A stretch of DNA of 64,000 nt from Candidatus Sulfotelmatobacter sp. GTDB taxonomy: Bacteria; Vulcanimicrobiota; Vulcanimicrobiia; Vulcanimicrobiales; Vulcanimicrobiaceae. Position 1 is the first letter of the stretch, and each line of letters starts with the position of its first letter. The notes beneath the pieces were generated by a model. It worked only from the letters and a program-made list of their open reading frames with translations. It searched no databases and was not told the origin of the DNA. The stretch is from assembly GCA_035504415.1 (NCBI GenBank), contig DATJRY010000017.1, forward strand, positions 461,263 to 525,262, given 5' to 3'. Made by a program: the position numbers and the translations under genes. Shown here piece after piece: positions 15,953 to 31,257 of the stretch.

Positions 15953-15964
15953 CGGCGCGGAATC

Positions 15965-17020
15965 TCAGCGCAGGGCGGCCACGATCGCGTCGCCCATCGC
16001 GCTCGTCGTGGCGGTGCCGCCCAGATCCGGCGTGAGCGTCGTTCGCGCGGTCATCACCGCCTCGACCGCGTCGGCGATGCGCTGCGCGGCGTCGCTCGCC
16101 GCGGCGTCGCCGTGCTTGCGGCCCAGCCACGCCAGCAGCATTTGGCCGGAGACGATCATGGCGTAGGGGTTGGCGACGTTGCGGCCTGCGATGTCGGGCG
16201 CCGAGCCGTGCGTCGCTTGCGCCATCGCCTTGTGCGGCCCGGCCGAGAGGCCCGGCGCCAAACCCAATCCGCCGACCAGGCCGGCCGCCTCGTCGGAGAG
16301 GATGTCGCCGAACATGTTGGTGGTGACGACGACGTCGTACCGCTGCGGCGTCATCACCAGGCGCATCGCGAAGGTGTCGACGATCGCCTCGTCGAGCATG
16401 ACGTCGGGAAACTCCCGGCCGACGCGCTTGACCTCCTCGACGAACATCCCGCAGCCGAGCTTGAAGACGGTGTCCTTGTGAACGACGGTGAGGTGCTTGC
16501 CCCGCGTGCGCGCCAGCTCGAACGCCTCGCGCGCGACCTTGGCCGAGCCATTGCGGGTGATGACGCGCACCGAGATGGTGACGTCGTGCGTGGGCCGGAA
16601 CTCGCCGCTGCCGGCCACGACGTTGCGGTCGGGTTGAAAGCCTTCGTTGTTCTCGCGCACGATCACCAGGTCGACGTCCTGGTGGACGGACGGGATGCCG
16701 GGATACGACTTGACCGGCCGGATGTTGGCGAACAGGTCGAAGTGCTTGCGCAAGATCGGGTGCGGGTTGGGCGCTTCGGCGACCTTCGGATAGGCCATGT
16801 GCCCGATCGGGCCCAGCACCCAGCCGTCGAGCTGCGCGAGTCGCTCGAGCGTATCGGCCGGCATCGTCGTGCCGAGCGTCTCGTACGCCCGGCGGCCGAT
16901 CGGAACGTCTTGCCATGCGATCTGCAAGCCGCTCAGCCGCGCCGCGGCCCGCATCACCTTGACGGTCTCGGGCACGACCTCGTGTCCGATGTCGTCGCCT
17001 TCGAGGACACCGATCTTCAT
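15965..17020 (-). CDS. Isocitrate/isopropylmalate/tartrate dehydrogenase family protein
   Basis: GDDIGHEV, IVRENNEG, NMFGDILSDEAAGLVGGLG and HGSAPDIAG motifs. Confidence 0.92.
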   Translation of the reverse strand: MKIGVLEGDDIGHEVVPETVKVMRAAARLSGLQIAWQDVPIGRRAYETLGTTMPADTLERLAQLDGWVLGPIGHMAYPKVAEAPNPHPILRKHFDLFANIRPVKSYPGIPSVHQDVDLVIVRENNEGFQPDRNVVAGSGEFRPTHDVTISVRVITRNGSAKVAREAFELARTRGKHLTVVHKDTVFKLGCGMFVEEVKRVGREFPDVMLDEAIVDTFAMRLVMTPQRYDVVVTTNMFGDILSDEAAGLVGGLGLAPGLSAGPHKAMAQATHGSAPDIAGRNVANPYAMIVSGQMLLAWLGRKHGDAAASDAAQRIADAVEAVMTARTTLTPDLGGTATTSAMGDAIVAALR

Positions 17021-17045
17021 GTCGCGTTTCCCCTCCGCGGGAGGT

Positions 17046-18437
17046 TCAGGGCGAGAGCGCTTCGAGGGCGCGGCCGTTGGTGACCGGGCCGAAGACGCCG
17101 ATACCGATGATGATGGCCAGCATCGCCGCGTCGATCATGGTGAAGACGCCGACCGTGCCGTACGCGGCCAACAGATTCCCGACCCAGTAGCCGACGAAGA
17201 TCGAGCTGATCCGGCTCCACGAGAAGGTGAAGCCGATCGCGCGAGCGCGGATGCGGGTCGGGAACAGCTCGGCCGCGTAGGGGTGAAAGACGCTGATCAT
17301 CCAGTTGTTGCCGAGCGCGATCAAGCCGCCGCAGACCAGGATCAGCGGCACGTTCCGCGCCCCGGCGAAGATCGTCCCGGCGACGCCGATGAGGATCGCG
17401 GTCAGCACCAGCTGCCACTTGCGCTCGACGCGTTCGGCGAAGTAGCTGCCGACCAGCGCGCCGACCGGTGCCAGCAGCACGATGATCGCCGTGTACGTCA
17501 GCGTGTGGATGATCGGGAAGCCCTGTTTGGTCAAGAGCACCGGCACGAACGAGGTGAAGCCGAAGACCGCAATCGTCTGGCAGAACTGGAACACCGAGAT
17601 CATCAGCGTGCGCGGCAGGTAGAAGCGGCTGAACATCTCTTGCCAATGACCTTGCTGCATCCCCAGCTCCGGCGAGCTCGGATCGGGCGGCGGCAGCGAA
17701 CCGCCGCGTTCGGCGATCACGCCCTGCTCGATGCGGGTGACGACGGCGTCGGCCTCGGCGGCACGCCCATGCGCCTCGAGCCAGCGCGGCGATTCCGGCA
17801 GCCCGCGCTGGACGAAGAAGACGACGATTCCGCTGAGCGCGCCGATCAGCACCACCCAGCGCCAGCCTGAGAACCCGAGCGGGTCGTGTGGCACGAGCCA
17901 GGCGGCCAGGAACGCGGCGACCGGGATCGCCGAGAGCACGAAGACGAACGAGGTCGTCATGTACTTGCCGCGTAGGCTGCGCGGCGTCAGCTCGGCCATG
18001 TAGCTGTCGTTGTTCACCAGCTGCATGCCGACCGCGAAGCCCGCGATCAGCCGCGCGGTGTCGATGAGGAGCGGGTCGCTCAGGAACACGATCGCGAGCT
18101 GCGCGAGCGAGTAGACGACCATCGAGGAGACGAAGACGGCGCGCCGGCCGACGCGGTCGGAGACGAACCCGAATACCGCGGTGCTCAGGAACATCCCCAC
18201 GAAGAACGAGGCCAGGAAGCTGGCGAAGCTGTGGTAGTCGAACAGCCCCTTGTTCTCGATGGTGTAGATTCCCGAGCGCACGAAGCCGGGGGCGATGAAG
18301 CCCGGCATGAACAGCTCGTAGAACTCGAACCAGCCGCCGCTCGCGATGCGAGCGATGACGCCGAGCAGATAGCGCGAGGGCGGCAGCCGATCGATGCGCC
18401 CCAGCACGGAGACGCGCGGCGCGGCCGCGGCGGTCAA
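17046..18437 (-). CDS. MFS transporter (aromatic acid/sugar porter-like)
   Basis: SDRVGRR motif A, ELTPRSLRG, ELFPTRIRARA, about 12 TM. Start inferred at TTG 18437 overlapping the PrpD-family stop. Confidence 0.9.
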   Translation of the reverse strand: MTAAAAPRVSVLGRIDRLPPSRYLLGVIARIASGGWFEFYELFMPGFIAPGFVRSGIYTIENKGLFDYHSFASFLASFFVGMFLSTAVFGFVSDRVGRRAVFVSSMVVYSLAQLAIVFLSDPLLIDTARLIAGFAVGMQLVNNDSYMAELTPRSLRGKYMTTSFVFVLSAIPVAAFLAAWLVPHDPLGFSGWRWVVLIGALSGIVVFFVQRGLPESPRWLEAHGRAAEADAVVTRIEQGVIAERGGSLPPPDPSSPELGMQQGHWQEMFSRFYLPRTLMISVFQFCQTIAVFGFTSFVPVLLTKQGFPIIHTLTYTAIIVLLAPVGALVGSYFAERVERKWQLVLTAILIGVAGTIFAGARNVPLILVCGGLIALGNNWMISVFHPYAAELFPTRIRARAIGFTFSWSRISSIFVGYWVGNLLAAYGTVGVFTMIDAAMLAIIIGIGVFGPVTNGRALEALSP

Positions 18438-19819
18438 CGCGTCACCGCCATGGCGGCGTGTCCGTTGGCCACCGGTGCCTCGCGCCGCGCGGCCTGCGCG
18501 AGCTGGGCGACGTCGCCGAGCCCGGCGACGTCCCAGCAGAGCGCGAGCACGCGCCGCGCTTGTTCCGGGCCGAGAATCGGATCGGCCAGGCCGTGGAACT
18601 TCGCCTCGAGGTCGGCATCGGTCATCGGGCGTGCCAGCGAGCCGATCGCGTGCTCGACGTGCAGCTCGTACATGGTGCCGTCGGTGAGCGTGATCGCGAC
18701 GTGGGCTTGGTCCGCGGCCAGCGCCGGATCGATCTCCGCGCGGATGCGATCGCGCAGCGCGACGACCGCCGGATCGGCGACCACCGCGTCGGAGAACTGC
18801 GGCTCGCCGGCGGCACCGGCGATCAGCGCGACGGCGGCCGCGTGATAGACGCTGAACTTCCCTTCGAGCCCCGTCTGCGGCGTTTTCTTGCCGGTCAGCT
18901 CGAGCACCAGCGGGTGCACGCGCAGCGCGACCGACGCGATGTCGCCGGGCACGAGCTGCTCGGCGTTGCGCAACTGGATGCAGCCGTCGATGGTGGGGTG
19001 GATGACGATGCCGCACGCGAACGGCTTGTAGGTATTCGCCAACAGCTCGTAGCGCTCGCCGAGTCCCTGCGTGATCTCGTCGTAGTCGCGCGCCACGCTG
19101 AGCACGTTGGCCCAGCCGCGCGGCGCTTCGATCGCCTGCTCCGAGCAGGTGAAACCGCGCTCCGCGAGGAGCGCCGCGGCCAGACCGTTCTGCGCGGAGC
19201 GGCCGGGATGGAAGCTCTTGGTCATCGTGCCGAACATCTCGCGCAGGCCGACCGGCTGCGTCGCCGCCAGCCCGAGCGCCCACGCCATGTGCTGTTCGTC
19301 CAATCCGAGGACCTTGCCGATCGCCGCGGCGGCGCCGAAGACACCGGTCGTCCCGGTGATGTGCCAGCCGACGTCGTAGTGCTCCGGGTAGACGGCGTTG
19401 CCGATCCGGCACTCGACCTCGACCCCGAGCACGAACGCGTTGACGAAGTCGGTGCCCCTCATCGGCCGCTGCTCCGCCCAGGCCAGGAGCGCGCTCGCGA
19501 CCGGGCCGGCGGGGTGGATGACCGTACGCAAGTGCGTGTCGTCGAAGTCGAACACGTGCGAGCTGATGCCGTTCATCAGCGCCGCGTGGAGCGGGTCGAG
19601 CCGTTCGGAACGCCCGAGGACGCTCGCGGTCGCCGGCCCCGAGAACGGTCCGAGCGCGGCGATCGCGACGTCCAGCGTCTCGTGGTGCGACCCGCCGATC
19701 GCACAGCCGGCCCAGTTGACGACGGCACGGGCGGCTTCTTTGCGGACCGGCGCGGGCAGCGCGTCGGGGCGCGCCTCGACGACGTAGCGGGCCAGCGTGC
19801 GCGTCACTCCACTCGACAT
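18434..19819 (-). CDS. MmgE/PrpD family protein
   Basis: NGISSHVFDFDDTH, HPAGPV, GWHITGT, TKSFHPG, YKPFACG, GKFS. Start MSSGVT at 19819. Confidence 0.92.
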   Translation of the reverse strand: MSSGVTRTLARYVVEARPDALPAPVRKEAARAVVNWAGCAIGGSHHETLDVAIAALGPFSGPATASVLGRSERLDPLHAALMNGISSHVFDFDDTHLRTVIHPAGPVASALLAWAEQRPMRGTDFVNAFVLGVEVECRIGNAVYPEHYDVGWHITGTTGVFGAAAAIGKVLGLDEQHMAWALGLAATQPVGLREMFGTMTKSFHPGRSAQNGLAAALLAERGFTCSEQAIEAPRGWANVLSVARDYDEITQGLGERYELLANTYKPFACGIVIHPTIDGCIQLRNAEQLVPGDIASVALRVHPLVLELTGKKTPQTGLEGKFSVYHAAAVALIAGAAGEPQFSDAVVADPAVVALRDRIRAEIDPALAADQAHVAITLTDGTMYELHVEHAIGSLARPMTDADLEAKFHGLADPILGPEQARRVLALCWDVAGLGDVAQLAQAARREAPVANGHAAMAVTR

Positions 19820-19908
19820 GGCGCGGTCTACGGTCACGGCGCCAAGGCGACCTTCCACGCCGTTCCGGTCAGCGGAACAGACCGGCGTCGAGCTGAAAGC
19901 GGGGGCCG

Positions 19909-20331
19909 ATGAAGCTCGCACCGGGACTGCGCGTCGGGCCGTCGGCGATTCACGGCCGCGGCTGCTTCGCCACCGCGCGTTTCGCGCGGCGGCGCAAGAT
20001 CGCCGAGTACACCGGCGAGCGGATCACCAACGCCGAGGCCGCGCGCCGCAGCGCCGGCCGGCCGGTGCTGCGCATCAGCGGCCTGGACCAGCGCTGGTCG
20101 ATCGACGGCGGCCGGGGCGGCAACGGCACCCATTACATCAACCACTCGTGCCGACCCAACGCGTTCTTGCAGACGTTCGGAAAACGACTGCTCGTCCTCG
20201 CGCTGCGCGACATCCGGCCCGGCGAGGAGATCACCGTCGACTACGTCGACACGTACCACTCCGACCGCAAGCGCTGCGGCTGCCGCGTTCCGGGCTGTCG
20301 CGGAACGATCAACAAGCCGAAGCGCGCGTAG
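19909..20331 (+). CDS. SET domain protein-lysine methyltransferase with post-SET Cys cluster
   Basis: SAIHGRGCFA, YINHSCRPN, GEEITVDY and CGCRVPGC motifs. Confidence 0.9.
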   Translation: MKLAPGLRVGPSAIHGRGCFATARFARRRKIAEYTGERITNAEAARRSAGRPVLRISGLDQRWSIDGGRGGNGTHYINHSCRPNAFLQTFGKRLLVLALRDIRPGEEITVDYVDTYHSDRKRCGCRVPGCRGTINKPKRA

Positions 20332-20349: not shown

Positions 20350-20688
20350 TCAGGTGCCCCCCGACTTGCAGATCAGACGCTGGATGCGCTCGAGCGTGAC
20401 CAGGCCGTCGGTCAAGACCTCGTCGATCGTGCTCAAGAACCCGCGCAGCCGTTCGATGTCGTCCGTCGCGACCTCGATCAGCATGGGCAGGTCCCCCGGC
20501 GCGTCGGGGTTCCAGTCGACCGAGAGCCGCCGATGGCTTCCGAAACCTTCGATCCCCCGAAAAACGGTCGCGCCACGGAAGCCGTGCTCGAGCAGCCGTT
20601 CGACCAACGCCTGCGTCGTCGAACGTTTGCCGGTGCGCGCGCTCTCCGAGACGTAGATCCGCATGAGCACGGCGTTGTGAGCGATCAT
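20350..20688 (-). CDS. DUF190 (PII-like, COG1993) protein
   Basis: MRIYVSE...GATVFRGIEGFGSH...DLPMLIEV...GLVTLE. Confidence 0.88.
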   Translation of the reverse strand: MIAHNAVLMRIYVSESARTGKRSTTQALVERLLEHGFRGATVFRGIEGFGSHRRLSVDWNPDAPGDLPMLIEVATDDIERLRGFLSTIDEVLTDGLVTLERIQRLICKSGGT

Positions 20689-20759
20689 GGTCCGGTCATC
20701 TCCTCGTCGAAACGGCCCGTCCGACAGGCCCGCCGCCCGCGGTAGCGTATCACTCGGCC

Positions 20760-21104
20760 ATGATCGCTGACCCGTCCTTCGTCCAGGGGCAGCTGCTGCG
20801 GATCTTCGTCGGCGAGGATGCCCACTACCATGGGCAGCCGCTCCACCTCGCGATCATCGAACTGCTCAAGCGCGAAGGGGTCGCCGGCGCCAGCGCCTTT
20901 CGGGGCATCGAAGGCTTCGGCTCGCATCACGAGATCCACCTCAACCGCGTCTTCGCGATCGGCGGGAAACTGCCGATCTTGATCGAGGTCGTCGACTCCG
21001 AGGAGCGCATCGCGGCGCTGCTGCCGCAGATCGAGCAGATGATCGACGAAGGCGCGGTGACGCTCGAGCGGGTCGAGTACCGGCGCTTTCTCAACGCGCG
21101 CTGA
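20760..21104 (+). CDS. DUF190 (PII-like, COG1993) protein, second paralog
   Basis: LLRIFVGE...GASAFRGIEGFGSH...KLPILIEVVDS...GAVTLERV. Confidence 0.9.
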   Translation: MIADPSFVQGQLLRIFVGEDAHYHGQPLHLAIIELLKREGVAGASAFRGIEGFGSHHEIHLNRVFAIGGKLPILIEVVDSEERIAALLPQIEQMIDEGAVTLERVEYRRFLNAR

Positions 21105-21110
21105 CACCGG

Positions 21111-21539
21111 TCAGCCCCGCAGCTCGTCGCTCACGACGAGGACCGGTGTTTGCGCCAGCCGGAGGACCGTGTCCGACACGCTGCCCAGGAGCTTGCGCTC
21201 GAGGCTGCCGCTGTGACGGCGCCCGACCACGATGAGGTCGGCGCCGATGCGGTGCGCCGCGTCGACGAGCGCGTGTGCTGCGTCGCCGTCCTCGATCAAT
21301 GCGAACGACGCGGTGACGCCGTGCCGCGCGGCACGCGCCACGGCTTCCTCGCCGTGCAGCCGATGTCCGCGCAGCTCCGCTTGACGCTCGCGTTCGTCCG
21401 GACCGCCGTGCGGGACCGGTTGGACGACGTCGACGATGGCGAGGCGGGCGTCGAACCGGCGCGCGACCTCCGCGGCGACGTCGACCGCGCGATCGGCGAT
21501 CGCGGTCTCGTCCCAACCGACCAGCACGTGCGAGAACAT
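21111..21539 (-). CDS. Universal stress protein, last gene of the riboswitch-led operon
   Basis: FSHVLVGWD...ADLIVVGRR...LLGSVSDTVL; starts 7 bp after the hyfB-like stop. Confidence 0.9.
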   Translation of the reverse strand: MFSHVLVGWDETAIADRAVDVAAEVARRFDARLAIVDVVQPVPHGGPDERERQAELRGHRLHGEEAVARAARHGVTASFALIEDGDAAHALVDAAHRIGADLIVVGRRHSGSLERKLLGSVSDTVLRLAQTPVLVVSDELRG

Positions 21540-21546
21540 AGACTGC

Positions 21547-23478
21547 CTACCAGTGGCGAACGGCCGGGAAAAGGAGCAGCATGACGATCGTGAACACCAG
21601 AATGTACGAGAGATAGAGCGCGATCACGCCCGACTGCGTCTCGCGCACGACGTCGGCGGCGCGCAAGAAGGCCGCGCCGATCCGGTTCCAGACGGCGACG
21701 CCGACCCAGGCGCGCGCGCGGACCGCGAGGTCGAGGATGACGCGGGTCGGGTTCGCGTAGCCGACGCCGGTGTATTGCGTCCACGGCCGGTACGCTTCGC
21801 CGGACGTCCACACCGGCACACGCGCGGAGCGCGGGCGGCGGATCAGCGCCACCAGCACGGCGAACGCCGCGGCGAAGCCGCCCACCACCAAGCCGAGTCC
21901 GAGCGGCCACGCCGACGAGAAGCCGGCGAAGGCCGGCTCGATGACCGGCGCGTCGGCCAGGATGCGCGCCGTCGCCGGGACGCCGGCCAAGCCGTCGATC
22001 GTGGGCCCCAGGGCGCTGATGAGCTGCGGCGCGAGGATGCCGACGCCGAGCGCACCGACCGCGCCCAGGACCAGCGCGGCGCCGCGAAAGGGATCGCGGC
22101 CGGCGCTCGCGCGTTCGGCCGCGGGCGTGCGCGGGGCCCCCAAGAAACCGATCCCGACGAGCTTCACGAACGCGACGATCGCGACGCCGGCGGCGATGCC
22201 GATCGTGGCGCCGCTCAACGCGAAGGTGATCGTCGCCGTGACGTTGCCGGTGCGGAACGCCTGCAGCAACGCTTCGAGCGTCATCCATTCGCCGGCGAAG
22301 CCGCCGCTCGGCGGCAGCGCGACGAGCGAGCCGGCTGCCGCCAGCACGACGACCGTCACCAGCGGGAGCGAACGCCACAGGCCGCCGAGCTCTTGGAACG
22401 AGGTCGTGCCGGCGTCGGCGCGCACTGCGGCGCAGGCCAGAAAGAGCGTGCACTTCGCGAGCGCATGCGCGGTCGCGTGCGCGAGCGCCGCGGCCACCCC
22501 GATGCCGCACAGGAACGGCAAGTCCAACGCGCGCGCCGCGATCGCGACGCCGAGCCCGACCAGCACGATCCCGGCGTTCTCGACGCTCGAGTAGGCCGCC
22601 AGCGTGCGCGCGTCGCGTTGCACCGCGGCCCAGGCGATGCCGAAGAACGCCGCCAGCGCGCCGCACGCCATCACCAGCAACCCCCACCACAGCGGCGTCG
22701 CTCCGCTCATCCCCAGGCCGACGCGGGCGATGCCGTAGAAGCCGACGTTGAGCGCGCCGCCCGCCATCATCGCGGCGACCAGCGAGGGTGCGGCGGTGTA
22801 GCCGCGCGCCATCCAGATCGGAAACGGCAAGATGCCGACCTTGGCGCCGAACGCGCACAGGAACAGCGCGAACGCGACACCGCGCACCAGCGGCGTCGCG
22901 CTCGCGCCGGCCGCCAAGAGCGTCGGCAATCCGAACGTGCCGTGGCCGACGACGACGAACGCGGCCAGCAGGCCCGCCGCGGCGCCGTGGGTGAGCAGCA
23001 GCGTGAGGTAGGCGGCGGACGGCCCGCGCGGGTCGGTGCCGGCGTAGGCGATGGCCTGATAGAAGGCCAGCGCCAGCAGCTCCCAGCCGAACACGAAGAG
23101 CAGCGCGTCGTCGGCCGTGCAGACGAGCAGCGAGGCGAACAGGACGCCGGCGGTGGCGCACGCGGCGGCGCGGCCGTCGCCGCGTTCGTCGGCGGTGCGC
23201 GCGCCCAGACCGTAGATGCCGACGACGACGCCGACCGCGCCGACGATGCCGAGGAACGCGGCGGCGAGCGGGTCGACGCGCAGCGCGAGATGCAAGGCGG
23301 GAGCCGCACGCCAACTGCGCGCGCCGTGCGCGAGCACGTCGCCCGCGGCGAGGAGTGCCGCGGCTCCGCCCAGCGCCGTGGCGAGAAAACCGGCCGCGCG
23401 GCCGACCGGCCCCTGCACCAGCGCCGCCAGCGCGAAGCCCGCGACGAGCAGCGCGAAGGCGATCAGCAGCGCGCTCAT
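21547..23478 (-). CDS. hyfB: HyfB-like (NuoL/M/N, Mrp-type) proton-translocating membrane subunit
   Basis: LRVDPLAAAF, FGWELL, GAKVGILPFPIW, AYSSVEN, AHALAKCTLF, LPPSGGFAGEW. Start 23478 by ATGA overlap. Confidence 0.88.
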   Translation of the reverse strand: MSALLIAFALLVAGFALAALVQGPVGRAAGFLATALGGAAALLAAGDVLAHGARSWRAAPALHLALRVDPLAAAFLGIVGAVGVVVGIYGLGARTADERGDGRAAACATAGVLFASLLVCTADDALLFVFGWELLALAFYQAIAYAGTDPRGPSAAYLTLLLTHGAAAGLLAAFVVVGHGTFGLPTLLAAGASATPLVRGVAFALFLCAFGAKVGILPFPIWMARGYTAAPSLVAAMMAGGALNVGFYGIARVGLGMSGATPLWWGLLVMACGALAAFFGIAWAAVQRDARTLAAYSSVENAGIVLVGLGVAIAARALDLPFLCGIGVAAALAHATAHALAKCTLFLACAAVRADAGTTSFQELGGLWRSLPLVTVVVLAAAGSLVALPPSGGFAGEWMTLEALLQAFRTGNVTATITFALSGATIGIAAGVAIVAFVKLVGIGFLGAPRTPAAERASAGRDPFRGAALVLGAVGALGVGILAPQLISALGPTIDGLAGVPATARILADAPVIEPAFAGFSSAWPLGLGLVVGGFAAAFAVLVALIRRPRSARVPVWTSGEAYRPWTQYTGVGYANPTRVILDLAVRARAWVGVAVWNRIGAAFLRAADVVRETQSGVIALYLSYILVFTIVMLLLFPAVRHW

Positions 23479-24224
23479 TCGGGTGCCTCGCGGGCGTGCG
23501 CGGCGACGCGGCCCAGTGCGACCCACAAGCCGTGCAGGATGCTCAGCGGCGCCGGCGGCGCGCCCGGGACCTTGACGTCGACCGGCACGACGCGGTCGAC
23601 CGGGCCGAGCACGTCCTGCGGAGCGTAGATGCTGCCCGAGCTGGCCGCACTGCCCACCGCGACCACCAGCTTGGGATCGGGCATCGCCTCGTACGTCCGG
23701 CGCAACGGCTCGGCCATGGCGCGGGTGACCACTCCGGTGACGACCAGCAGGTCGGCATGGCGCGGCGTCGCGGTGAGAAAGATCCCTAGCCGGTTGAGAT
23801 CGTAGAACGGGTTGAAGAGCGCTTGCACCTCCTGATCGCACGACGCGTCGCTGCCGCCGTCGACGTGCCGCACGAAGACCGAGCGCCCGAGCGACGAAGC
23901 GCGGCGCGCCAGGCGCGCCTGCGTGGTGGCGAGATCGGTCGGGATGAGCGAGAGTTCGTACTCGTTGCGCATCGCGTACGCATCGGGCGCGACACGCGCG
24001 CACCAGCCGCACTGGAAACAGCGTTGGCGCAGCACGACCGGCGGCGCGTGCGTGAGATCGATCGCGTTCGACAGACAAGCGCGTGCGCCGCGTTCGTAGG
24101 CCTCCGGCGGAGCGCCGGGCAGAACGGCGGCCGTTCCCCGCCAGTCGGCCGGCATCTCTTCGCGACCGCCGGGATAGCGGGTTGTCAGAATGCCGCGTGA
24201 GAGGCCGCGCAGAAACCAATTCAT
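23475..24224 (-). CDS. Fused ferredoxin-like (HyfH/HycF) plus NuoB-like small subunit (HyfI/HycG) with degenerate Fe-S ligands
   Basis: TTRYP, CFQCGWC, RHVDGGSDASC.QE, FYDLNRLGI..TATPRHADLLVVTG, DPKLVVAVG, DVKVPGAPP. Start 24224 by ATGA overlap. Confidence 0.9.
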   Translation of the reverse strand: MNWFLRGLSRGILTTRYPGGREEMPADWRGTAAVLPGAPPEAYERGARACLSNAIDLTHAPPVVLRQRCFQCGWCARVAPDAYAMRNEYELSLIPTDLATTQARLARRASSLGRSVFVRHVDGGSDASCDQEVQALFNPFYDLNRLGIFLTATPRHADLLVVTGVVTRAMAEPLRRTYEAMPDPKLVVAVGSAASSGSIYAPQDVLGPVDRVVPVDVKVPGAPPAPLSILHGLWVALGRVAAHAREAPE

Positions 24225-25615
24225 CGGTCGGTCTCCGCCACGATCAGCCCGAACGAGTGCTCGATGAACGAGAAGTCGGTGAAGATGTTGCCCGGTAATG
24301 CGGGGACGAACAACGGCCAGTTCTGGAACGACGCGCTGCGGATCGCGACCCGTCGCAGCTGTCCGTCGAAGCGGACCGCGTAGAGCAGCTCGCCCTGCGG
24401 TGATTCCACCCGCGCCATCCCCTCGGCGGCGCCGAACGACGGTACGGCGGCGCACGACGGACCGGGTGGCGCGGCGTCGAGCGCGTTGCGTACCAGCAAG
24501 AACGAGCGATGGATCTCTTCGCGTCGCACCTGCGCGCGGGCGAGCGCGTCGCCGCCGGCGGCCAACGCCTCGTCGGCCTCCTGCGACGTGAAGTTCCAGC
24601 CGTCGCGCGTTCGCGCGTCGCACGGCACGCCGCTGCCGCGTGCGACCGGGCCAACCGCGCCGAACGCGCCGATCGTCGCCGCGTCGAGGTGTCCGGTGCC
24701 GACCAGCCGGTCGATCAGCGAGGGCGTCGCGAAAAGCGCTTCGAGGGCGGCCAGCGTCTCGTGCTCGACCAGCTCGAGGTCGGTGCGGCAGGCCGCGTGC
24801 AGTGCCTCGAAGGCGTCGAATCGCGTCCCGCCGACGCACACGACGCCGCGACCGAAGCGGTTCTCGACCGCGCGCGCCAGCAGCCGGTGAACACGTTCCT
24901 TCGCGGCGTAGGTGTGCGCGGCACCGACGCTCAGCGAGCCGTCGTCGGCCAGTTTGGCCAGCGCGTCCAGGTGTTGGTGGATGCGTTCCAGCTCGCTCAG
25001 GATCGCGCGAGCGGCGCGCGCGCGCGGTGGGACCTCGACGTTCAGCGCTGCTTCGGCGGCGCGCGCAAAAGCCGTCGCGTGGCTGACCGCGGTGGCACCG
25101 GAAACGTGCTCCGCGACGAACGGCGCCTGGTCGAGCGGAACGCCCGCGAAACGCGCTTCCAGCCCACGGTACTTGAATCCGAACGAGGGCGTGACGTGCG
25201 CGAAGTCCTCGCCGCGCGTCTCGATGATCCAGCGGGCCGATTCGCCGATCCCCGAGCGCACGGGGCCGTACAAGACCGTCGACGCGTCAGGCGAGTCGAC
25301 GTGACGATAGCCTTCGGCGGCGGAAGGAATCAGCGGTGAGGGTTCGCCCGGCGCGGCATCGAGCTGCACGCCCCAGCGCTCGACCAGCTCGCGCTCGTGC
25401 CAGCCTGCCGCCGGCAGGCCGAGCGACTCGAGCGCGTTCTGCAGATAGCCGTCGAACGAGCGCAGCGCGCCGTTCTCGTCGACGACATAACGCACGAACG
25501 TGCCGTGCTCGTCGCGATCGGCGTAGCACCATACGAAGCGCGCGCCGCCGTCCACTCGTGCGCGCGCCGCCGCCCGCGCTTGCCGCGCCGTGGCATCGGC
25601 GCGTTGCACGATCAC
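24221..25615 (-). CDS. HyfG/HycE-like (NuoC+NuoD) large subunit lacking NiFe-binding motifs (Ehr type)
   Basis: WHEREL, YGPVRSGIGES, FKYRGLE, ELERIHQHL, GPVARGSG, ARAQVRREE, VESPQGE, RSASFQNW. RxCGxC and DPCxxC are absent. Start GTG 25615 by GTGA overlap. Confidence 0.9.
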   Translation of the reverse strand: MIVQRADATARQARAAARARVDGGARFVWCYADRDEHGTFVRYVVDENGALRSFDGYLQNALESLGLPAAGWHERELVERWGVQLDAAPGEPSPLIPSAAEGYRHVDSPDASTVLYGPVRSGIGESARWIIETRGEDFAHVTPSFGFKYRGLEARFAGVPLDQAPFVAEHVSGATAVSHATAFARAAEAALNVEVPPRARAARAILSELERIHQHLDALAKLADDGSLSVGAAHTYAAKERVHRLLARAVENRFGRGVVCVGGTRFDAFEALHAACRTDLELVEHETLAALEALFATPSLIDRLVGTGHLDAATIGAFGAVGPVARGSGVPCDARTRDGWNFTSQEADEALAAGGDALARAQVRREEIHRSFLLVRNALDAAPPGPSCAAVPSFGAAEGMARVESPQGELLYAVRFDGQLRRVAIRSASFQNWPLFVPALPGNIFTDFSFIEHSFGLIVAETDR

Positions 25616-27048
25616 GGCGAGCCCTCGAACAGCGCTTGCGCGCGGGCGATCAGCGCGACCAGCGGCTCCGGTACGACCAGGCCCAGGCCGATCACGACGA
25701 TCAGCCCGATGCACATCCCGGCGATCGGCACGAGCGCGCGCTCGCCGCGCCGCGTGTGCTCCGGCGGGTCGCCGGTCGTGGTCGCGGTGACCCAGCGCAG
25801 CAGTCCGGCGAACGCGATCGTCAGCAGGACGGCGACGATCGCGGCGAACCAGGGCGTGCGCCCGAAGCCGCCGGCGAGGATCATCAGCTCGCTGCGGAAG
25901 ACGCCGAACGGCGGCAAGCCGGCCAGCGAGAGACCCGCCAACGCGAACAGCACGCCCGAAACCGGCAGGCTGCGGATGCCGCCCCGGATGCCGGCGATCT
26001 CGCGCGTCTCGTAGCGCTCGGCGAGGCGTCCCGCGGAGAGGAAGGCCAGCGACTTGGAGGCGGCGTGGTTGATGGTGTGCAGCAGCGCGCCGGCGATCGC
26101 CAGCGGCGCGCCGAAGGCCAGCCCGACCGCGACGACGCCCATGTGCTCGATGCTCGAGTACGCCAGCATGCGTTTGATGTCGCGCTGCTGCAGCAAGAAA
26201 AAGGCCGCGAGCGCGAGCGAGATGATGCCGACGATGCCGAACAGCCGGTGGGTCATGGTGTCGCCGACGCTGGCATTGGTGATGCCGGCGAAGCGGAGGA
26301 TGACGTAGAGCGCGTCGGAGAGCAAGACGCCGGAGAGCATTGCGCTGGTCGGCGTGGGGCCCGCGCCGTGCGCGTCGGGCAGCCAGGTGTGCATCGGCGC
26401 GAGGCCCATCTTGGTGCCGAAGCCGATCAACGCCAACAAGAACGCCAGCCGCACGGCGTTCGGGTCGAGACCCTTGGCGGCGTGCACGTACGCGCTCCAC
26501 TCCGGCGCGTAGTGCGCGCCGAGCACGCTGGTGCCGGCGTCGTAGAGCACGACCACGCCGACCAGGCCGATCGCCAGACCGCAGGAGGCGATCAGGATGT
26601 ACTTCCAGGCCGCCTCCAACGCGCCGTCGGTGCCCTGCAGGCGAACGAGCAGCGCCGCCAGGATCGTGGTGACCTCCATCGCGACCCACAAGCCGGCCAT
26701 GTTCGAGAGCAGCGGCACGACGGCTTCGGCGCAGGCGAAGGCGTTGGTGAGCGCGAGGAATTGCCGCCGGTAGCGCTCGCCGGCCGCGTCGTCGCGGCTC
26801 TCGGCCGCGACGTACCAGGCCGCGTAGAGGCCGACCCCGCCGTACACCACCGCGACCGGGATCAGGAAGAGCCCGGAGAGCGCGTCGAGCGCCGGACGTC
26901 CGGCGCCGAACGCGTCGAGCAGCATCAGCGCGGCGGCGACCAGGCCGCCGGCGGCCGTCAGCGGCCGCCCGGCGCGCGAGGGAAGCAGCGCCGTCGCGAC
27001 GGCCAGCGCCCCGGGCACGATGACGACGAGCCACGAGAGCGTGCTCAT
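25612..27048 (-). CDS. hyfF: HyfF-like proton-translocating membrane subunit
   Basis: WVAMEVTT, LEAAWKY, GFGTKMGLAPMHTWLPDAH, KRMLAYSSIEH, NHAASKSLAF, GLPPFGVFRSE. Confidence 0.92.
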   Translation of the reverse strand: MSTLSWLVVIVPGALAVATALLPSRAGRPLTAAGGLVAAALMLLDAFGAGRPALDALSGLFLIPVAVVYGGVGLYAAWYVAAESRDDAAGERYRRQFLALTNAFACAEAVVPLLSNMAGLWVAMEVTTILAALLVRLQGTDGALEAAWKYILIASCGLAIGLVGVVVLYDAGTSVLGAHYAPEWSAYVHAAKGLDPNAVRLAFLLALIGFGTKMGLAPMHTWLPDAHGAGPTPTSAMLSGVLLSDALYVILRFAGITNASVGDTMTHRLFGIVGIISLALAAFFLLQQRDIKRMLAYSSIEHMGVVAVGLAFGAPLAIAGALLHTINHAASKSLAFLSAGRLAERYETREIAGIRGGIRSLPVSGVLFALAGLSLAGLPPFGVFRSELMILAGGFGRTPWFAAIVAVLLTIAFAGLLRWVTATTTGDPPEHTRRGERALVPIAGMCIGLIVVIGLGLVVPEPLVALIARAQALFEGSP

Positions 27049-27719
27049 CCGCGCAGCTCCGAGAGGCTGCGGATCGAAGCCGAGTTGCGGCGCGCGATCA
27101 TGATGCGGGCGAGCACCGCGAAGACGACGACCGCCACCAGGACGTCGATCAGCAGCAGGACGCCGACGACGAACGGCAGCCCCGGCGCGAGCGTCACCGT
27201 GCCGAAGAACAGCCCGTTTTCGAGGGTCAGGAACGCGATCAGCTGCGCGAGAGCATTCGGCCGCAGTATGGCGAGCAGGAAGCCGATGAAGACGATCGCC
27301 ATCGTCGCGGCCAGGTCCGCGCGCGGCAGCAGCGCGCCGAACGGCAGCGGCAGGCGCGCGGCGGTCAGCAGCGCGAGGGCGGTCAACGCGGCGGCCAGCA
27401 GGATCGAGAGCGTGACGTTGACGTGAATCGGCAGCTCGATGCGCACCGCGATCGAACGCGCCAAGCCGCGCATGTATGCCGGCAGGACGACGACCTTGAA
27501 GACCAGCGTGAGGACGGCCAGCACGATCAGGTCCCAGCCGTGCTCTTCGATGCCGACGATGAGCGCGACCGCCGCGACGAACAGCGATTGCACCGCGTAG
27601 AGCGAGATCAGCTCGCCGAGGATGACCGAGCGGAACATGGCCAGTTGGGTCAGGATGAGCGCGACGACGATCGTGCCCGCGAGCGCGTCGGCCGCGGTGA
27701 GCGGGTGGGGCGTCATCAT
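27045..27719 (-). CDS. hyfE: HyfE-like membrane subunit
   Basis: YAVQS, FKVVVLP, QLIAFLTLENGLFF, LLIDV; overlaps both neighbours. Confidence 0.88.
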   Translation of the reverse strand: MMTPHPLTAADALAGTIVVALILTQLAMFRSVILGELISLYAVQSLFVAAVALIVGIEEHGWDLIVLAVLTLVFKVVVLPAYMRGLARSIAVRIELPIHVNVTLSILLAAALTALALLTAARLPLPFGALLPRADLAATMAIVFIGFLLAILRPNALAQLIAFLTLENGLFFGTVTLAPGLPFVVGVLLLIDVLVAVVVFAVLARIMIARRNSASIRSLSELRG

Positions 27720-28672
27720 CCCACCCGCGCCGCCCAGGTGACGACGGCCAGCACCGCCAGCAGCAGGCCGGTCGCGATGAACTCGGTGATCTTGTAGAGG
27801 CGCAGCTTAGCGAACGACGTGTCGATGACGACGACGACCGCCCCGACGATCAGCATCTTGCCGAAGACGGTGACGAGCGCCAGCGCGACGGCGCCCACGC
27901 TGCCGGTCGCGGCCAGGCCGGGCGGCAAGAAGAGCACGTTGCAGAAGATCGTGTAGAGCACGAACTGCTTCATCGAGGCGCCCCACTTGAACAGGCCCAT
28001 CTCGGGGCCGGCGTGCTCGAACAGCCGCGCGTCGTCGATCATGCCGAACTCGATCGTCGCGCTCGAGCTTTCGATCGGGATGCGGCCCGTGTCGACCAGG
28101 AGCATCAAGAAGAAGGCCGCCATCGCGAACAGGTGCGCCGGGCGCACGACCGCCGCGACCGAGTGGCTGAGCAGCGCGTTCATCGCGTACGGGAGGTCGG
28201 TTCCGGTGATGAACGCGACCGAGAAGAAGACGAAGATCAGCGTCGGCTCGACCAGGATGCCGACCATCGTCGCGCGGCTGGCGCCGATCGAGGTGTACTG
28301 CGAGCCGCCGTCGAGAGCGGCGAGCGCGGTGACGAAGCCCGCCAGCGCGAGGACGAACGCGCCGCCGAGGATGTCGCCATAGGTGGCGCCGGGCAACGGA
28401 TACGTCGTCAGGACCGGGATCAGCGTCGCGACGGTCGCGTAGCAGCCGCATGCCACGTAGGGCGCGATGCGAAAGACGGGCGAGGCGACGTCGGGCGTGA
28501 CGCGCTGCTTGCGCAGCAGCTTCACGATGTCGCGATAGACCTGCCAGATCGACGGCCCGCGTTTGCCCTGCACGATCGCGGAGGCGCGGGCGATGAGTCC
28601 GGTGAGCAGCGGAGAGACGAACAGCGTCGCTCCGACCTGACACGCCTGGACGGCCAAGGGCGTCAAGGTCAC
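27716..28672 (-). CDS. hyfC: HyfC/HycD-like (NuoH family) membrane subunit, first gene after the riboswitch
   Basis: GKRGPSIWQVYRDIVKLLRK, GASR...LVEP, DTGRIPIE, AKLRL. Confidence 0.9.
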   Translation of the reverse strand: MTLTPLAVQACQVGATLFVSPLLTGLIARASAIVQGKRGPSIWQVYRDIVKLLRKQRVTPDVASPVFRIAPYVACGCYATVATLIPVLTTYPLPGATYGDILGGAFVLALAGFVTALAALDGGSQYTSIGASRATMVGILVEPTLIFVFFSVAFITGTDLPYAMNALLSHSVAAVVRPAHLFAMAAFFLMLLVDTGRIPIESSSATIEFGMIDDARLFEHAGPEMGLFKWGASMKQFVLYTIFCNVLFLPPGLAATGSVGAVALALVTVFGKMLIVGAVVVVIDTSFAKLRLYKITEFIATGLLLAVLAVVTWAARVG

Positions 28673-28742
28673 CGTTGCCTACCCCGGGAATCACCATTGC
28701 GCAGCACTGAACTTCCTCCGACGCGTCGAGTGGAGACGGGTC

Positions 28743-28804
28743 GTAGGAGTCATTGGCCACGCGGGCGGTTTGCGGCGACTGCCGACGGGCGGACCCCACC
28801 GCCC
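28743..28804 (-). ncRNA. Fluoride riboswitch (crcB RNA motif)
   Basis: Minus strand reads GGGCGG-UGGGGU-CCGCCC...AAACC-GCC-CGCGU-GGC-CAAUGACUCCUAC. P1 is 6 bp, P2 is present, and the pseudoknot GGGGU/ACUCC can form. Matches the GGCGAUGGNGUUCGCC...AAAC...UAAUGACNCCUAC consensus with a compensatory A-U to G-C change. Confidence 0.87.
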
Positions 28805-28854
28805 GGGGACGTTGCGACTCGGGTTCGGCCAGAGCCCGGAGGCGGCCTTCCGCG

Positions 28855-30534
28855 TTACGCGAGCGCCGGGGCAGCGGGTTCGACGCGGTCGCGGCCGCCG
28901 TGCTTGGCGGCGTACAGCGCCGCGTCGGCGCGTTCGAGCAGCGCTTCACCGGGCTCGTCACCCAGCGCGCAGGCGGCGCCGATGCTGACCGTCAGCACGC
29001 CGTCCACCCCGTCGGCGTGCGGGATCGCCTTCGCCCGAACCGCACGGCGGACGCGTTCGCCGAGTGCCACGGCGCCCTCGATGTCGGTCCCCGGCAAGAG
29101 CGCGACGAACTCTTCGCCGCCGAAGCGCGCGGCGCAATCGACCGCACGCAGCGCTCCGCCGAACGCGGTTGCCACCGCGCTCAGCGCTTGGTCGCCGGCG
29201 AGGTGTCCGTAGCGGTCGTTGTAGCTCTTGAACTTGTCGACGTCGAGGACCAGCACGGAATACGGAGCGTGCGTGCGCTGCGCGTGCGCGCGTTCCTCGG
29301 CCATCGCACGCTCCAGGCCGCGGCGGTTCGTCAGCCGGGTCAAGGGATCGAAGAACGCGTCGTGCTCGAAGGTGCGCAGGCGCTCCGCCAGCGCGATCGA
29401 GAGGAGCAGCGCCTCCCAGGCGAAGCCGAGCGTCGGCGCGACGTGCAGCAGCGCCGTGTACTGCACCAGCAGGTTGATGCCCGCGCCCCCGATCACGTTG
29501 CCCAGCATCACGCCGACGACCGCCAACGCGTAGAGCACCGCTTCACGGTCGCCGCGCGACGCGGCGACGATCCCGCACAGCGCGAGCGGCGCGAGAACGA
29601 GCGCGGTGGTGACGATCTCCGCCCAATCCCAGACGCCTGCGCCGATCAGCAGCTCCGGGGCGACGACGAGCAGCACGTTCGTGAGCACGAAGAGCCCGAG
29701 CAGCGCGAGGATCAGCGCGTCGGTGCGCGGGAACGTCGAGCGCGTGCGCAGGAACGCGCGGCCGAAGACGACGGCGGAGCCGATCGCGAGCGCGTAGGTC
29801 GTGTTGTCGGCCAGATCGTAGTCGATCCCGACACCGGGCCACAGCCAGCGCCACGCGTCGCCGCTGAGCACGAGCACGTGGAGCGCCGCCGCGACGACGG
29901 CGGCGGCGTAGTAGGCGTACGTCGACCGTCGCAGGCGCAGCGCCAGCAGGACGTTGAGCACGCCGAAGGCGGCGACGAACCCGGCGGAGAGGAGCTGCAG
30001 TCCGCGCGTCCCCGCGCCTTCGACCAGCCAGCCGAACCACGCGCGCTCGCTCATCAGGCGGAAGACGGAGGCGTGCGCGAAGGACGAGCGGACGCGCAGA
30101 TAGATCGGCCGGCCGTCGAGCGCGTCGCGCGGCAGCGGGATCAAATTTTGGGCGTGCGGGAACGGCTTGTCGGCCGTCGGGACGTCGCCGCCGGTGTGCA
30201 CGGTCTCCACGCCGCCGTCGGCGCGCGGGACGAACAGCTCGGCGTCGAGCGTGTGCCAGGAGACGAGCAGATCGTAGGCGCCGGGCTCGCGCGGTCGGAT
30301 GCGCAGCCGAAACCAGGTGATCGCGGGATGCGCTCGCGTCGCCGTGTGGCGGTCGACGAGCGTGGGAGCCGAACGCCACGGCGCGTCGGGCGCGCGCACC
30401 TCGGCGAGCGTGAGGCGGCCGCCGTCGTCCGCGATCGCATCGGCGCGCGTCCAGAGATCGACGTCCGTATCGGCGGCGGGTCGCAGCGGAGCGACCACGG
30501 CTAGCACTAGCGCCGCCAGAACCGCCTGGTACAC
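28855..30534 (-). CDS. Diguanylate cyclase with 7TM-DISM extracellular and 7TM sensor domains
   Basis: Signal peptide, 'WFRLRI' DISM-ED, 7 TM segments, DPLTRLTNRR, DVDKFKSYNDRYGHLAGD, RAVD I-site, GGEEF. Confidence 0.92.
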   Translation of the reverse strand: MYQAVLAALVLAVVAPLRPAADTDVDLWTRADAIADDGGRLTLAEVRAPDAPWRSAPTLVDRHTATRAHPAITWFRLRIRPREPGAYDLLVSWHTLDAELFVPRADGGVETVHTGGDVPTADKPFPHAQNLIPLPRDALDGRPIYLRVRSSFAHASVFRLMSERAWFGWLVEGAGTRGLQLLSAGFVAAFGVLNVLLALRLRRSTYAYYAAAVVAAALHVLVLSGDAWRWLWPGVGIDYDLADNTTYALAIGSAVVFGRAFLRTRSTFPRTDALILALLGLFVLTNVLLVVAPELLIGAGVWDWAEIVTTALVLAPLALCGIVAASRGDREAVLYALAVVGVMLGNVIGGAGINLLVQYTALLHVAPTLGFAWEALLLSIALAERLRTFEHDAFFDPLTRLTNRRGLERAMAEERAHAQRTHAPYSVLVLDVDKFKSYNDRYGHLAGDQALSAVATAFGGALRAVDCAARFGGEEFVALLPGTDIEGAVALGERVRRAVRAKAIPHADGVDGVLTVSIGAACALGDEPGEALLERADAALYAAKHGGRDRVEPAAPALA

Positions 30535-30620
30535 GCAGTCCTGATTTGACGAGCGAGCGCTTGCGTCCCGGGCCGCCGCCCAGCGGGTCAGCGCGTCCCG
30601 GCCGGCGCCGCCCTCCGGAC

Positions 30621-30649
30621 AAAGAAAAGCCCCCGCGCGGGCGGGGGCT
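30621..30649 (-). terminator. Rho-independent terminator
   Basis: 9-bp stem AGCCCCCGC/GCGGGGGCT (30628-30649), 4-nt loop, followed by TTTCTTT on the minus strand just after the 30662 stop. Confidence 0.8.
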
Positions 30650-30661
30650 CGACGGTGCCTC

Positions 30662-30952
30662 TCAGGAGCGCGGCGGCTCCCAGCACGTCACGTTTTTCTT
30701 GTCGCACTGCGAGACGCCGTACGTGTTGACGGAGCGGCGCGCGGGAATGCTGAAGTGCTCGACCGCCTTCGCGACCCAGTCTGCCTGTGCCACGTGGCCG
30801 TTCTTTTTCTTCTCGCTGCAGTAGTTGTGGCGTGTGTCGAGGTTTTGCACGCACGTGAAGAGGTTGTCGGCCTTCGCCGGCAACGGCAAGCTGATGAGAA
30901 CGCCCAGTGCTCCGAGCACGGCGATCCCCTTGATTGACATATGCATATACAC
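30662..30952 (-). CDS. Small secreted protein with four Cys
   Basis: Signal peptide ending AKA-D, AAAAGGG RBS, own terminator. Confidence 0.65.
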   Translation of the reverse strand: MYMHMSIKGIAVLGALGVLISLPLPAKADNLFTCVQNLDTRHNYCSEKKKNGHVAQADWVAKAVEHFSIPARRSVNTYGVSQCDKKNVTCWEPPRS

Positions 30953-31044
30953 CCTTTTCGCAATGACGGCCGCAAGAGGAGCGGCGAGGTCTGGAGTTGC
31001 AGACCGAGTGCTCGACCCCCTTGCCGGGGGGCGTCGAGGGACTG

Positions 31045-31236
31045 ATGCCGATCGAGAACGACGCCGAGTACACCTGTCCGAGCTGTGGCGAGACCAACGC
31101 GGTCGGGGTCGATCCGACGCAAGGACGGCGCCAGCAGTTCGTCGAGGATTGTCCCGTCTGTTGCCGTCCGCTGGTGTTCACCGTGGTCGTCGATCGCGAC
31201 GGCGACGCGCTGATCGAGCGTGTCGAGCGCGAGTAG
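31045..31236 (+). CDS. CPXCG-motif cysteine-rich protein
   Basis: CPSCGE...QQFVEDCPVCCRP; GAGG RBS before ATG 31045. Confidence 0.88.
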   Translation: MPIENDAEYTCPSCGETNAVGVDPTQGRRQQFVEDCPVCCRPLVFTVVVDRDGDALIERVERE

Positions 31237-31257
31237 CACGAATGGAAAGCGCCGCGA

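Follow-up and report, generated by a model that had tools for sequence, protein, structure and literature searches.

Formate hydrogen lyase genes have been listed since 2012 among the genes found behind fluoride riboswitches, together with genes encoding universal stress proteins (USP) and COG1993 proteins (Baker et al. 2012, cited in PMC11139923, PMC8752731 and PMC8004769), and reviews treat the riboswitch-associated hyc/hyf genes as a formate-oxidising enzyme that brings about a metabolic shift (PMC11139923, PMC8752731). Here we analyse a locus of this kind, in which a fluoride-type aptamer precedes a seven-gene operon encoding a membrane complex and a universal stress protein (hyfC–hyfE–hyfF–large–small–hyfB–usp). 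The locus lies in a 64-kb stretch of wetland metagenome DNA with a GC content of 68% (contig DATJRY010000017.1, positions 461,263 to 525,262; the whole stretch is referred to below as the window), whose closest protein relatives come from the Eremiobacterota/Vulcanimicrobiaceae. With the formate hydrogen lyase class the window shares the association itself, that is, an aptamer in front of genes of the hyc/hyf type and, in the vicinity, genes for USP and COG1993/DUF190 proteins, but it differs from the class as described in that the window family lacks any NiFe ligand and the proximal Fe–S cluster. The initial annotation of this DNA had put the locus forward as a candidate new fluoride-resistance system. 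As the association has been listed since 2012 it is not itself new, and the window operon adds an Eremiobacterota member to it.

Among the membrane complexes described to date, the energy-converting-hydrogenase-related (Ehr) complexes are relatives of the group-4 [NiFe] hydrogenases that lack the Ni/Fe-coordinating residues and possess Mrp-like subunits (Marreiros et al. 2013, cited in PMC6349859). Ehr complexes in general are suspected of coupling redox reactions to charge translocation (PMC6349859). The window complex resembles them in its homology to group-4 hydrogenases, its missing Ni/Fe residues and its Mrp-antiporter-like subunits. Unlike other Ehr complexes, the clade to which it belongs also lacks the NuoB-type cluster, is led by a fluoride riboswitch throughout our sample and has no formate dehydrogenase partner nearby. 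Among solved structures, E. coli Hyc (7Z0S) and Pyrococcus furiosus Mbh and MBS (6CFW, 6U8Y) come closest to the large, small, HyfB-like and HyfF-like subunits, and the window large subunit has a NuoC-like N-terminal part in common with E. coli HycE. Compared with Hyc and Mbh, the window complex is without the NiFe site, the three-cluster Fe–S chain and FdhF and, compared with Hyc, its HycF and HycG counterparts are fused, with a single four-cysteine motif left. The Mrp antiporter (6Z16, 7QRU, 7D3U) is similar in that two MrpA/MrpD-type subunits with the Glu/Lys set are present and redox chemistry is not evident, but the window complex adds a NuoH-like subunit and a full, apparently redox-dead peripheral arm (NuoD- and NuoB-like), and counterparts of MrpB, C, E, F and G were not recognised. 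Relative to complex I (Nuo), the quinone ligands, the N2 ligands and NuoE/F/G are all missing. The fluoride exporters Fluc (CrcB) and CLC-F belong to the same regulon as the window complex but have no sequence relationship to it.

The fluoride-type leader

The leader of the operon comprises the following features:

28737..28812, minus strand: fluoride (crcB-motif) riboswitch aptamer (Rfam RF01734 and a custom covariance model)
28708..28752, minus strand: expression platform, in which the Shine–Dalgarno sequence GGAGGA at 28719..28714 is open to pairing with the 3' strand of the pseudoknot (UGACUCCU...) and the flank of that strand
28669..28707, minus strand: 12-codon leader open reading frame (ORF; VLRNGDSRGRQR*), with its GTG at 28707, 6 nucleotides (nt) downstream of the controlled Shine–Dalgarno sequence

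A search of the whole window with Rfam gave a match to RF01734 at 28812..28737 on the minus strand, scoring 35.5 bits where the gathering score is 34 (E 4e-06) and ending 65 nt before the GTG start of hyfC at 28672. The crcB-type aptamer that the initial annotation had placed about 70 nt upstream of hyfC, and had proposed to score against the Rfam covariance model, is therefore real by that measure. The same sequence scores 50.9 bits in a custom covariance model built from 48 aptamers of related loci. No second fluoride aptamer was found in the window with Rfam or the custom model, or in a permissive scan of the region from 19 to 31 kb.

Evidence that the association is not peculiar to the window comes from its relatives. 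One genome per GTDB species was scanned with an alignment of large-subunit homologues, which gave 324 relatives, and the best 80 loci, mostly from metagenome-assembled genomes from peat, fen, palsa and soil, were taken further. The custom covariance model identified ~190 aptamers in the 80 loci and, in all 72 of the 72 operons for which upstream DNA was available, an aptamer lies directly upstream of hyfC on the correct strand, its end being 20–216 nt (mostly 25–70 nt) from the hyfC start. Aptamer-led operons of this type are found in Eremiobacterota, Thermoleophilia (Solirubrobacterales, Gaiellales) and Chloroflexota. A fixed regular expression for the aptamer had matched only 38 loci. At its gathering score, Rfam confirms the leaders of the window and of loci L002, L039, L081 and L084 but does not call those of L017, L027, L034, L036, L049, L057, L059, L063 and L065, which are retained in the count of 72 on the basis of the custom model and their position. 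The weakest leaders score 21–30 bits in the custom model and, judged by eye, the leaders missed by Rfam have a long insert and a P1 of different but covarying sequence (CCAG/CTGG) whilst keeping the 3' half and the anti-Shine–Dalgarno segment.

Beyond the Ehr leaders, aptamers of the same loci also precede genes encoding CrcB, DUF190 proteins, enolase, inorganic pyrophosphatase, MutS-domain-V proteins, NUDIX hydrolases and metallophosphoesterases (the genes downstream being called by a GC3–GC2 criterion suited to high-GC DNA), and these make up the classic fluoride regulon. Five loci (L052, L072, L017, L065 and L066) have the character of 'fluoride islands', with up to eight aptamers in 21 kb. 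The aptamers there precede MutS-domain-V, NUDIX, metallophosphoesterase, pyrophosphatase, CrcB and DUF190 genes and also genes for an enolase fused or adjacent to DUF6062, a dynamin-like GTPase and formate–tetrahydrofolate ligase. In the cultured Eremiobacterota species Vulcanimicrobium alpinum (L084; AP025523.1, 3451440–3472822) an aptamer (6841–6909 of the locus) is followed by the six complex genes and usp; besides a DUF190 gene and several interspersed transposase genes, this locus contains a NUDIX fragment with a second aptamer in front of it.

The fold of the aptamer is well supported. With P1, P2, the pseudoknot, A40, U48 and the logic of a ligand-stabilised pseudoknot, the window leader resembles the RF01734 examples from Thermotoga petrophila and Bacillus cereus, but it differs from them in an extra hairpin between P1 and P2 and in having G6–C38 where the consensus has A6–U38. 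A6–U38, in T. petrophila numbering, is a long-range tertiary pair, reportedly seen in the crystal structure of Ren et al. (2012). Covariation was analysed in an alignment of 127 aptamers from related loci, built with a model from which the pseudoknot and the 6–38 pair had been left out. Standard pairing is seen in 99.3% of cells and compensatory changes at 10 of the 13 pairs, including all four of P1 and three of the five in the pseudoknot; the covariation score was reached by none of 500 shuffles, and slid controls were only 32–53% paired. Covariation thus backs P1, P2, the pseudoknot and the A6–U38 tertiary pair. At positions 6 and 38 the alignment has AU in 98 aptamers, GC in 23 and another combination in four, so that the G–C of the window is a compensated swap. 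A40 and U48, the linchpin pair for fluoride locking of the pseudoknot (PMC8752731), are both present in the window aptamer.

In the leaders of Ehr operons the aptamer contains an additional hairpin, placed between P1 and the AACCGCC segment. This linker has a median length of 16 nt in Eremiobacterota and of 14 nt in the remaining phyla, compared with 1 nt in aptamers before non-Ehr genes, and although the inserts are unrelated in sequence, those of 34 of the 39 distinct leaders fold into a hairpin (median –8.2 kcal/mol). In addition, G6–C38 is found in 21 of 24 Eremiobacterota Ehr leaders but in only one of 29 other aptamers of the same loci. By these sequence features the Ehr-operon aptamers are a subtype of their own and, as the extra hairpin is common across phyla, riboswitch and operon appear to have travelled together for a long time.

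Might these same departures mean that the leader RNA has lost fluoride sensing, either as a decayed copy or as a variant retuned to another ligand? The Rfam score of the window aptamer barely exceeds the threshold, conserved nucleotides are changed (G6–C38, A39), there is an additional hairpin, and the deviation of the Eremiobacterota Ehr leaders is at positions that are otherwise highly conserved (the 21 of 24 against one of 29 given above). Nevertheless, the A–U to G–C swap compensates a known tertiary pair within a fold that is retained and covaries strongly, the actinobacterial Ehr leaders keep the canonical A6–U38, the A40–U48 linchpin is retained (PMC8752731) and some operons under the same leader include crcB itself. 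We consider a loss of fluoride sensing very unlikely. The presence of an aptamer in all 72 evaluable operons, the covariation and the occurrence of the same RNA family before crcB and other fluoride-regulon genes uphold the earlier placing of the operon under a genuine fluoride-type aptamer, and on these grounds we predict, with high confidence, that such an aptamer functions in the leader.

The sequence following the aptamer points to a mode of control. The pseudoknot 3' strand plus the nucleotides after it (UGACUCCUACGAC) is complementary to GUCGGAGGAAGUUCA, which holds the Shine–Dalgarno sequence GGAGGA, and this alternative pairing suggests a translational ON switch. The local fold of the window platform has an energy of –29.7 kcal/mol (z –4.15), the equivalent anti-Shine–Dalgarno helices have z values of –4.4 in L002 and –4.6 in L006, and inspection by eye finds the CUCCU...AGGAG design in ~60 leaders from all three phyla. 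A terminator-type platform was rejected, as a terminator scan revealed no terminator-like structure after the aptamer. In the window, the freed Shine–Dalgarno sequence would serve the leader GTG at 28707 and not hyfC; leader ORF and hyfC share a GTGA, the TGA of the one overlapping the GTG of the other, an arrangement that suggests translational coupling from the leader ORF to hyfC. Comparable short ORFs that end on or just past the hyfC start are present in L081, L005, L009, L015, L019, L020 and L022, whilst in the remaining loci hyfC starts directly after the Shine–Dalgarno sequence.

Taken together with its aptamer, this makes the window leader most likely a translational ON fluoride switch, acting by Shine–Dalgarno sequestration, not by way of a terminator, and driving a leader ORF coupled to the first gene, in contrast to the RF01734 examples named above. 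Without fluoride, the pseudoknot 3' strand (CUCCU) and its flank would pair with GGAGGA and mask it; with the Mg–F– complex bound, the pseudoknot would capture the CUCCU strand and leave the Shine–Dalgarno sequence exposed. The 12-codon leader ORF would then be translated, and translation would be coupled into hyfC through the GTGA overlap.

In the region 28855–34967 (minus strand), a gene encoding a 7TMR-DISM GGDEF diguanylate cyclase ends only 43 nt before the aptamer, and upstream of the GGDEF gene are molybdenum-hydroxylase subunits similar to CoxL (31261–33630) and CoxS (34422–34967). A promoter scan recognised no site in the interval that separates the GGDEF gene from the aptamer, so that transcription may read through; the scan found no sigma-70-like promoter, although the sigma-70 pattern is uninformative for the host phylum.

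Lost metal centres and retained residues

The seven genes of the operon are as follows (aa, amino acids):

27716..28672, minus strand: NuoH/HycD/HyfC-like membrane subunit, 318 aa (Pfam NADHdh, E 2.3e-30)
27045..27719, minus strand: HyfE-like small membrane subunit, 224 aa (NCBIfam hydrogenase-4 membrane subunit, E 1.1e-18, under the cut-off)
25612..27048, minus strand: HyfF/NuoM/MrpD-like antiporter-type subunit, 478 aa (Pfam Proton_antipo_M, E 4e-52)
24221..25615, minus strand: NuoC–NuoD/HycE-like 'large subunit', 464 aa (Pfam Complex1_49kDa; aligned to MbhL, HycE and Nqo4)
23475..24224, minus strand: 'small subunit' in which a HycF/NuoI remnant is fused to a NuoB/HycG-like part, 249 aa (Pfam Oxidored_q6, weak Fer4_13; aligned to MbhJ and HycG)
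21547..23478, minus strand: HyfB/HycC/NuoL-like antiporter-type subunit, 643 aa (Pfam Proton_antipo_M)
21111..21539, minus strand: universal stress protein gene usp, last in the operon, after a 7-nt gap behind hyfB (Pfam Usp, E 7e-28)

The six complex genes are chained by overlaps of 4 nt, as the initial annotation had read them, and the five junctions could be located: ATGA at 27716–27719 and 27045–27048, GTGA at 25612–25615, and ATGA at 24221–24224 and 23475–23478. Gene order (hyfC–hyfE–hyfF–large–small–hyfB) is the same in all 80 related loci, with usp usually next. The HyfE-like subunit has no Pfam match. The HyfF-like subunit matches MBS, Mbh, NuoM and MrpD in the PDB, and the best PDB match of the HyfB-like subunit, nearly full length, is E. 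coli formate hydrogenlyase subunit 3 (7z0s_C, E 1.3e-38).

Such relationships could be taken to mean that the operon encodes a genuine formate hydrogenlyase or [NiFe] hydrogenase that consumes cytoplasmic protons or shifts metabolism towards fermentation. The subunits are homologous to those of the E. coli enzyme, database names for these proteins include 'Ni,Fe-hydrogenase III large subunit' and 'formate hydrogenlyase subunit 5', and reviews call the riboswitch-associated genes formate hydrogen lyase. The alignments tell against it. In the window large subunit 'SGAT' stands where MbhL and HycE have 'CGIC', and none of 81 family members has a cysteine at the four NiFe-ligand positions, which are occupied by A/S, A/T/S, T/S/I/V/L and G/E. 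The proximal cluster of the small subunit, as judged by alignment to MbhJ and HycG, fares no better: the first cysteine is replaced by aspartate in 73 of 74 sequences, the second is kept in eight of 74, the third position is alanine in the window and the cysteine of the PGCPP motif is present in none of the 74. Neither formate dehydrogenase nor hyp maturation genes were found among the window ORFs scanned. The missing NiFe and proximal Fe–S ligands refute a formate hydrogenlyase at the sequence level, leaving it with next to no probability.

The ligands of complex I are also gone. Alignment to 2fug_4 places glycine (phenylalanine or valine in the family) at the position of His38, and the position of Tyr87 falls inside 'SGAT'; these two residues, in T. 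thermophilus Nqo4 numbering, are the quinone ligands of complex I. The NADH-oxidising module NuoE/F/G is absent from the operon both in the window and in the 80 related loci. Given the lack of NiFe-site and proximal-cluster ligands, the complex encoded is, to judge from its sequence, neither a hydrogenase nor a formate hydrogenlyase, nor is it complex I; it is of the Ehr type, and the label given to it by the initial annotation was right because the NiFe ligands are absent.

What the complex has kept is well conserved. In the antiporter-type subunits the Glu/Lys set is conserved, comprising E125, K213, K332 and E387 in the HyfF-like protein (75 sequences) and E133, K213, K342 and E397 in the HyfB-like protein; the glutamate of transmembrane helix (TM) 5, the lysine of TM7 and the glutamate of TM12 (E125/K213/E387 and E133/K213/E397, respectively) are at least 95% conserved. 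The same level of conservation is found at many charged residues of the HyfC-like and HyfE-like subunits, with 79 of 318 positions of the former at least 95% conserved among 72 orthologues, and in the large subunit many of the charged positions do not vary at all. In the small subunit, a ferredoxin-type motif (C50, C69, C72 and C75) is present in 74 of 74 sequences, and these four cysteines in the HycF/NuoI-type N-terminal remnant would be enough for one [4Fe–4S] cluster.

The cysteine motif, together with the invariant charged residues of the large subunit, bears on whether the complex is a redox-driven ion pump, of unspecified donor and acceptor, that is induced by fluoride to replace poisoned energy-conserving steps (enolase/glycolysis, pyrophosphatases, ATPases). 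Ehr complexes are, as noted, suspected of redox-coupled charge translocation (PMC6349859), and a paralogous clade, seen in L017 and L005, retains all four N2-type cysteines. In the window family, by contrast, the losses just described (no PGCPP cysteine in 74 sequences, aspartate for the first cysteine in 73 of 74, no NiFe cysteines and no equivalents of His38 and Tyr87) leave no visible electron path to any active site, and the operon has no dehydrogenase or ferredoxin partner gene. We regard a redox-driven pump as fairly unlikely.

The paralogous Ehr operon occurs at 15237–20613 in L017, 55–4693 in L005 and 19040–19876 in L028, with a large subunit ~30% identical to that of the window family. 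It keeps all four NuoB/N2-type cysteines without a full NiFe site, and a fluoride aptamer precedes this operon as well in L017 and L028.

Fluc and the role of the complex

Neither CrcB (PF02537) nor CLC (PF00654) was detected in the 64-kb window, whether by motif regular expressions, by tblastn with three CrcB queries (one from E. coli and two from related loci) or by Pfam searches of the main ORFs, which did not cover every small ORF; the result holds for the window and not for the remaining genome. The initial annotation had likewise seen no Fluc/CrcB or CLC-F gene here, but its hint that the complex might replace a missing Fluc is weak, since relatives carry crcB in or near the operon. In six loci of Thermoleophilia type (L034, L036, L051, L052, L066 and L072) usp is followed by crcB, a second crcB and a gene for one protein with three DUF190 repeats, the usp–crcB–crcB–DUF190x3 continuation of L036 lying at 13943–16226; in other loci usp is followed by DUF190 repeats. 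In the Eremiobacterota loci L001, L011 and L016 crcB is found within ~2 kb of the operon end. That crcB co-occurs with the complex in these relatives, and is sometimes co-operonic with it, indicates that the complex accompanies Fluc, and argues against a substitute exporter and for a role complementary to that of Fluc.

The co-occurrence has to be set against the idea that the complex itself exports F– or HF (hydrogen fluoride) actively, as a third kind of fluoride pump, driven by the proton-motive force through its antiporter-like subunits. Such a pump would help where a passive Fluc is ineffective because the pH gradient is large and the membrane potential small, and the relevant habitat is acidic wetland or peat. 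The wiring to an aptamer in 72 of 72 operons is far tighter than has been reported for Fluc or CLC-F, crcB and CLC were not found in the 64-kb window, and the peripheral arm has been conserved although no catalytic site can be recognised in it. On the other side, the known relatives in the PDB all move cations or protons and not anions, the conserved membrane residues are the usual Glu/Lys set of a proton pathway, and the Fluc pair within the operon in six loci and the nearby crcB in three Eremiobacterota loci point to a role that is complementary and not redundant. Active export by the complex is, in our judgement, distinctly unlikely.

Sequence favours instead a defence of pH and proton-motive force over F– export. 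HF entry acidifies the cytoplasm and drains the proton-motive force, on which fluoride export depends, and Na+/H+ antiporters are the second most common class of gene associated with fluoride riboswitches (PMC11139923). The relatives of solved structure (Mbh, MBS, E. coli formate hydrogenlyase, Mrp and complex I) are in keeping with a role of this kind. We therefore propose, with moderate confidence, that the seven-gene operon hyfC–hyfE–hyfF–large–small–hyfB–usp, under its translational ON fluoride riboswitch, encodes a complex that protects pH and proton-motive force. Fluoride would induce the complex to move H+, or to exchange a cation for H+, across the membrane; working alongside a Fluc channel, it would allow cytoplasmic pH and proton-motive force to outlast the cycle of HF entry and F– exit that Fluc sets up.

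Several points weigh against this proposal. A typical Na+/H+ antiporter carries H+ inward and would not relieve acidification. Without a redox centre the complex offers no evident energy source for pumping, while the four-cysteine motif (74 of 74) and a paralogue that has kept its N2 cysteines mean that redox chemistry may persist. The window aptamer is only 1.5 bits over the Rfam threshold and many actinobacterial leaders score under it. Finally, universal fluoride wiring is unexpected for a general pH or ion device and hints at a more fluoride-specific job, as the link is strict whereas only ~15% of Flucs are riboswitch-controlled (PMC11139923).

A more far-reaching possibility is that the clade abandoned redox chemistry and became a dedicated fluoride-defence device, either a new kind of active F–/HF exporter or an ion pump whose vestigial arm, with its one Fe–S cluster, senses fluoride or gates the pump. 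This we think unlikely, but if true it would be the first function assigned to any Ehr complex and would explain why a fluoride riboswitch, of a subtype of its own, stands before the operon in every case examined.

On this analysis, the genes long listed as formate hydrogen lyase become a conserved, apparently redox-dead complex-I/Mrp-like machine, fluoride-controlled throughout the sample and often accompanied by USP, Fluc and DUF190. In the literature searched, from which Baker et al. (2012) and a 2021 review of fluoride exporters are excluded, four aspects appear not to have been spelled out: that these genes cannot encode a hydrogenase, that the whole sampled clade is fluoride-controlled, that it has its own aptamer subtype and a device coupling a leader ORF to the operon, and that the operon includes Fluc in some lineages. 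A long-listed but unexplained member of the fluoride regulon is turned in this way into a sharply defined and testable problem, namely what use a complex-I scaffold has in fluoride defence and what drives it. That cultured Vulcanimicrobium alpinum bears the same locus is of value here; an answer would give the first physiological context for Ehr complexes, with relevance to life in acidic, fluoride-exposed soils and to the engineering of microbes that release fluoride from organofluorines.

Neighbouring genes

Two DUF190 genes lie beyond usp:

20760..21104, plus strand: first DUF190/COG1993 (PII-like) gene, convergent with usp (Pfam DUF190, E 7.8e-36)
20350..20688, minus strand: second DUF190/COG1993 gene (Pfam DUF190, E 8.8e-25)

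The initial annotation had the complex genes followed by usp and two DUF190 genes. This holds for usp, 7 nt on, but the DUF190 genes are divergent from one another across a 71-nt spacer and the first, being encoded on the plus strand, is off the riboswitch-controlled mRNA, so that the pair is no plain continuation of the operon. The product of the first gene matches 2dcl and 1o51 in the PDB, both annotated as 'hypothetical'. The inverted layout is also present in the closest relative (large subunit 76% identical) and is the same in L081–L083; with the nearest relative arranged alike, it is not an assembly artefact. In L081, from a sister species, the DUF190 genes (14156–14923) have this layout without usp. 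A second aptamer inside the 71-nt spacer was considered and ruled out, as neither the permissive scan nor the custom covariance model gave a match there.

Elsewhere in the window, a BlaR1-type M56 peptidase gene behind a small ORF (9100–11678, plus strand) and genes for an isocitrate/isopropylmalate dehydrogenase, an MFS transporter and an MmgE/PrpD protein (15968–19921, minus strand) have no evident link to fluoride. The region 42000–50900, with a GC content of 58–63% compared with ~70%, adjoins tRNA genes at 50730–50802 and 50808–50878 (minus strand) and may be an acquired island. A PHROG scan of this low-GC stretch was essentially empty, and the two large ORFs at 46759–48048 and 48286–50241 have no Pfam or PHROG match. 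In the actinobacterial locus L039, a c-di-AMP riboswitch (RF00379, 81.8 bits) is located at 19382–19536 on the plus strand, ~5 kb downstream of the Ehr operon.

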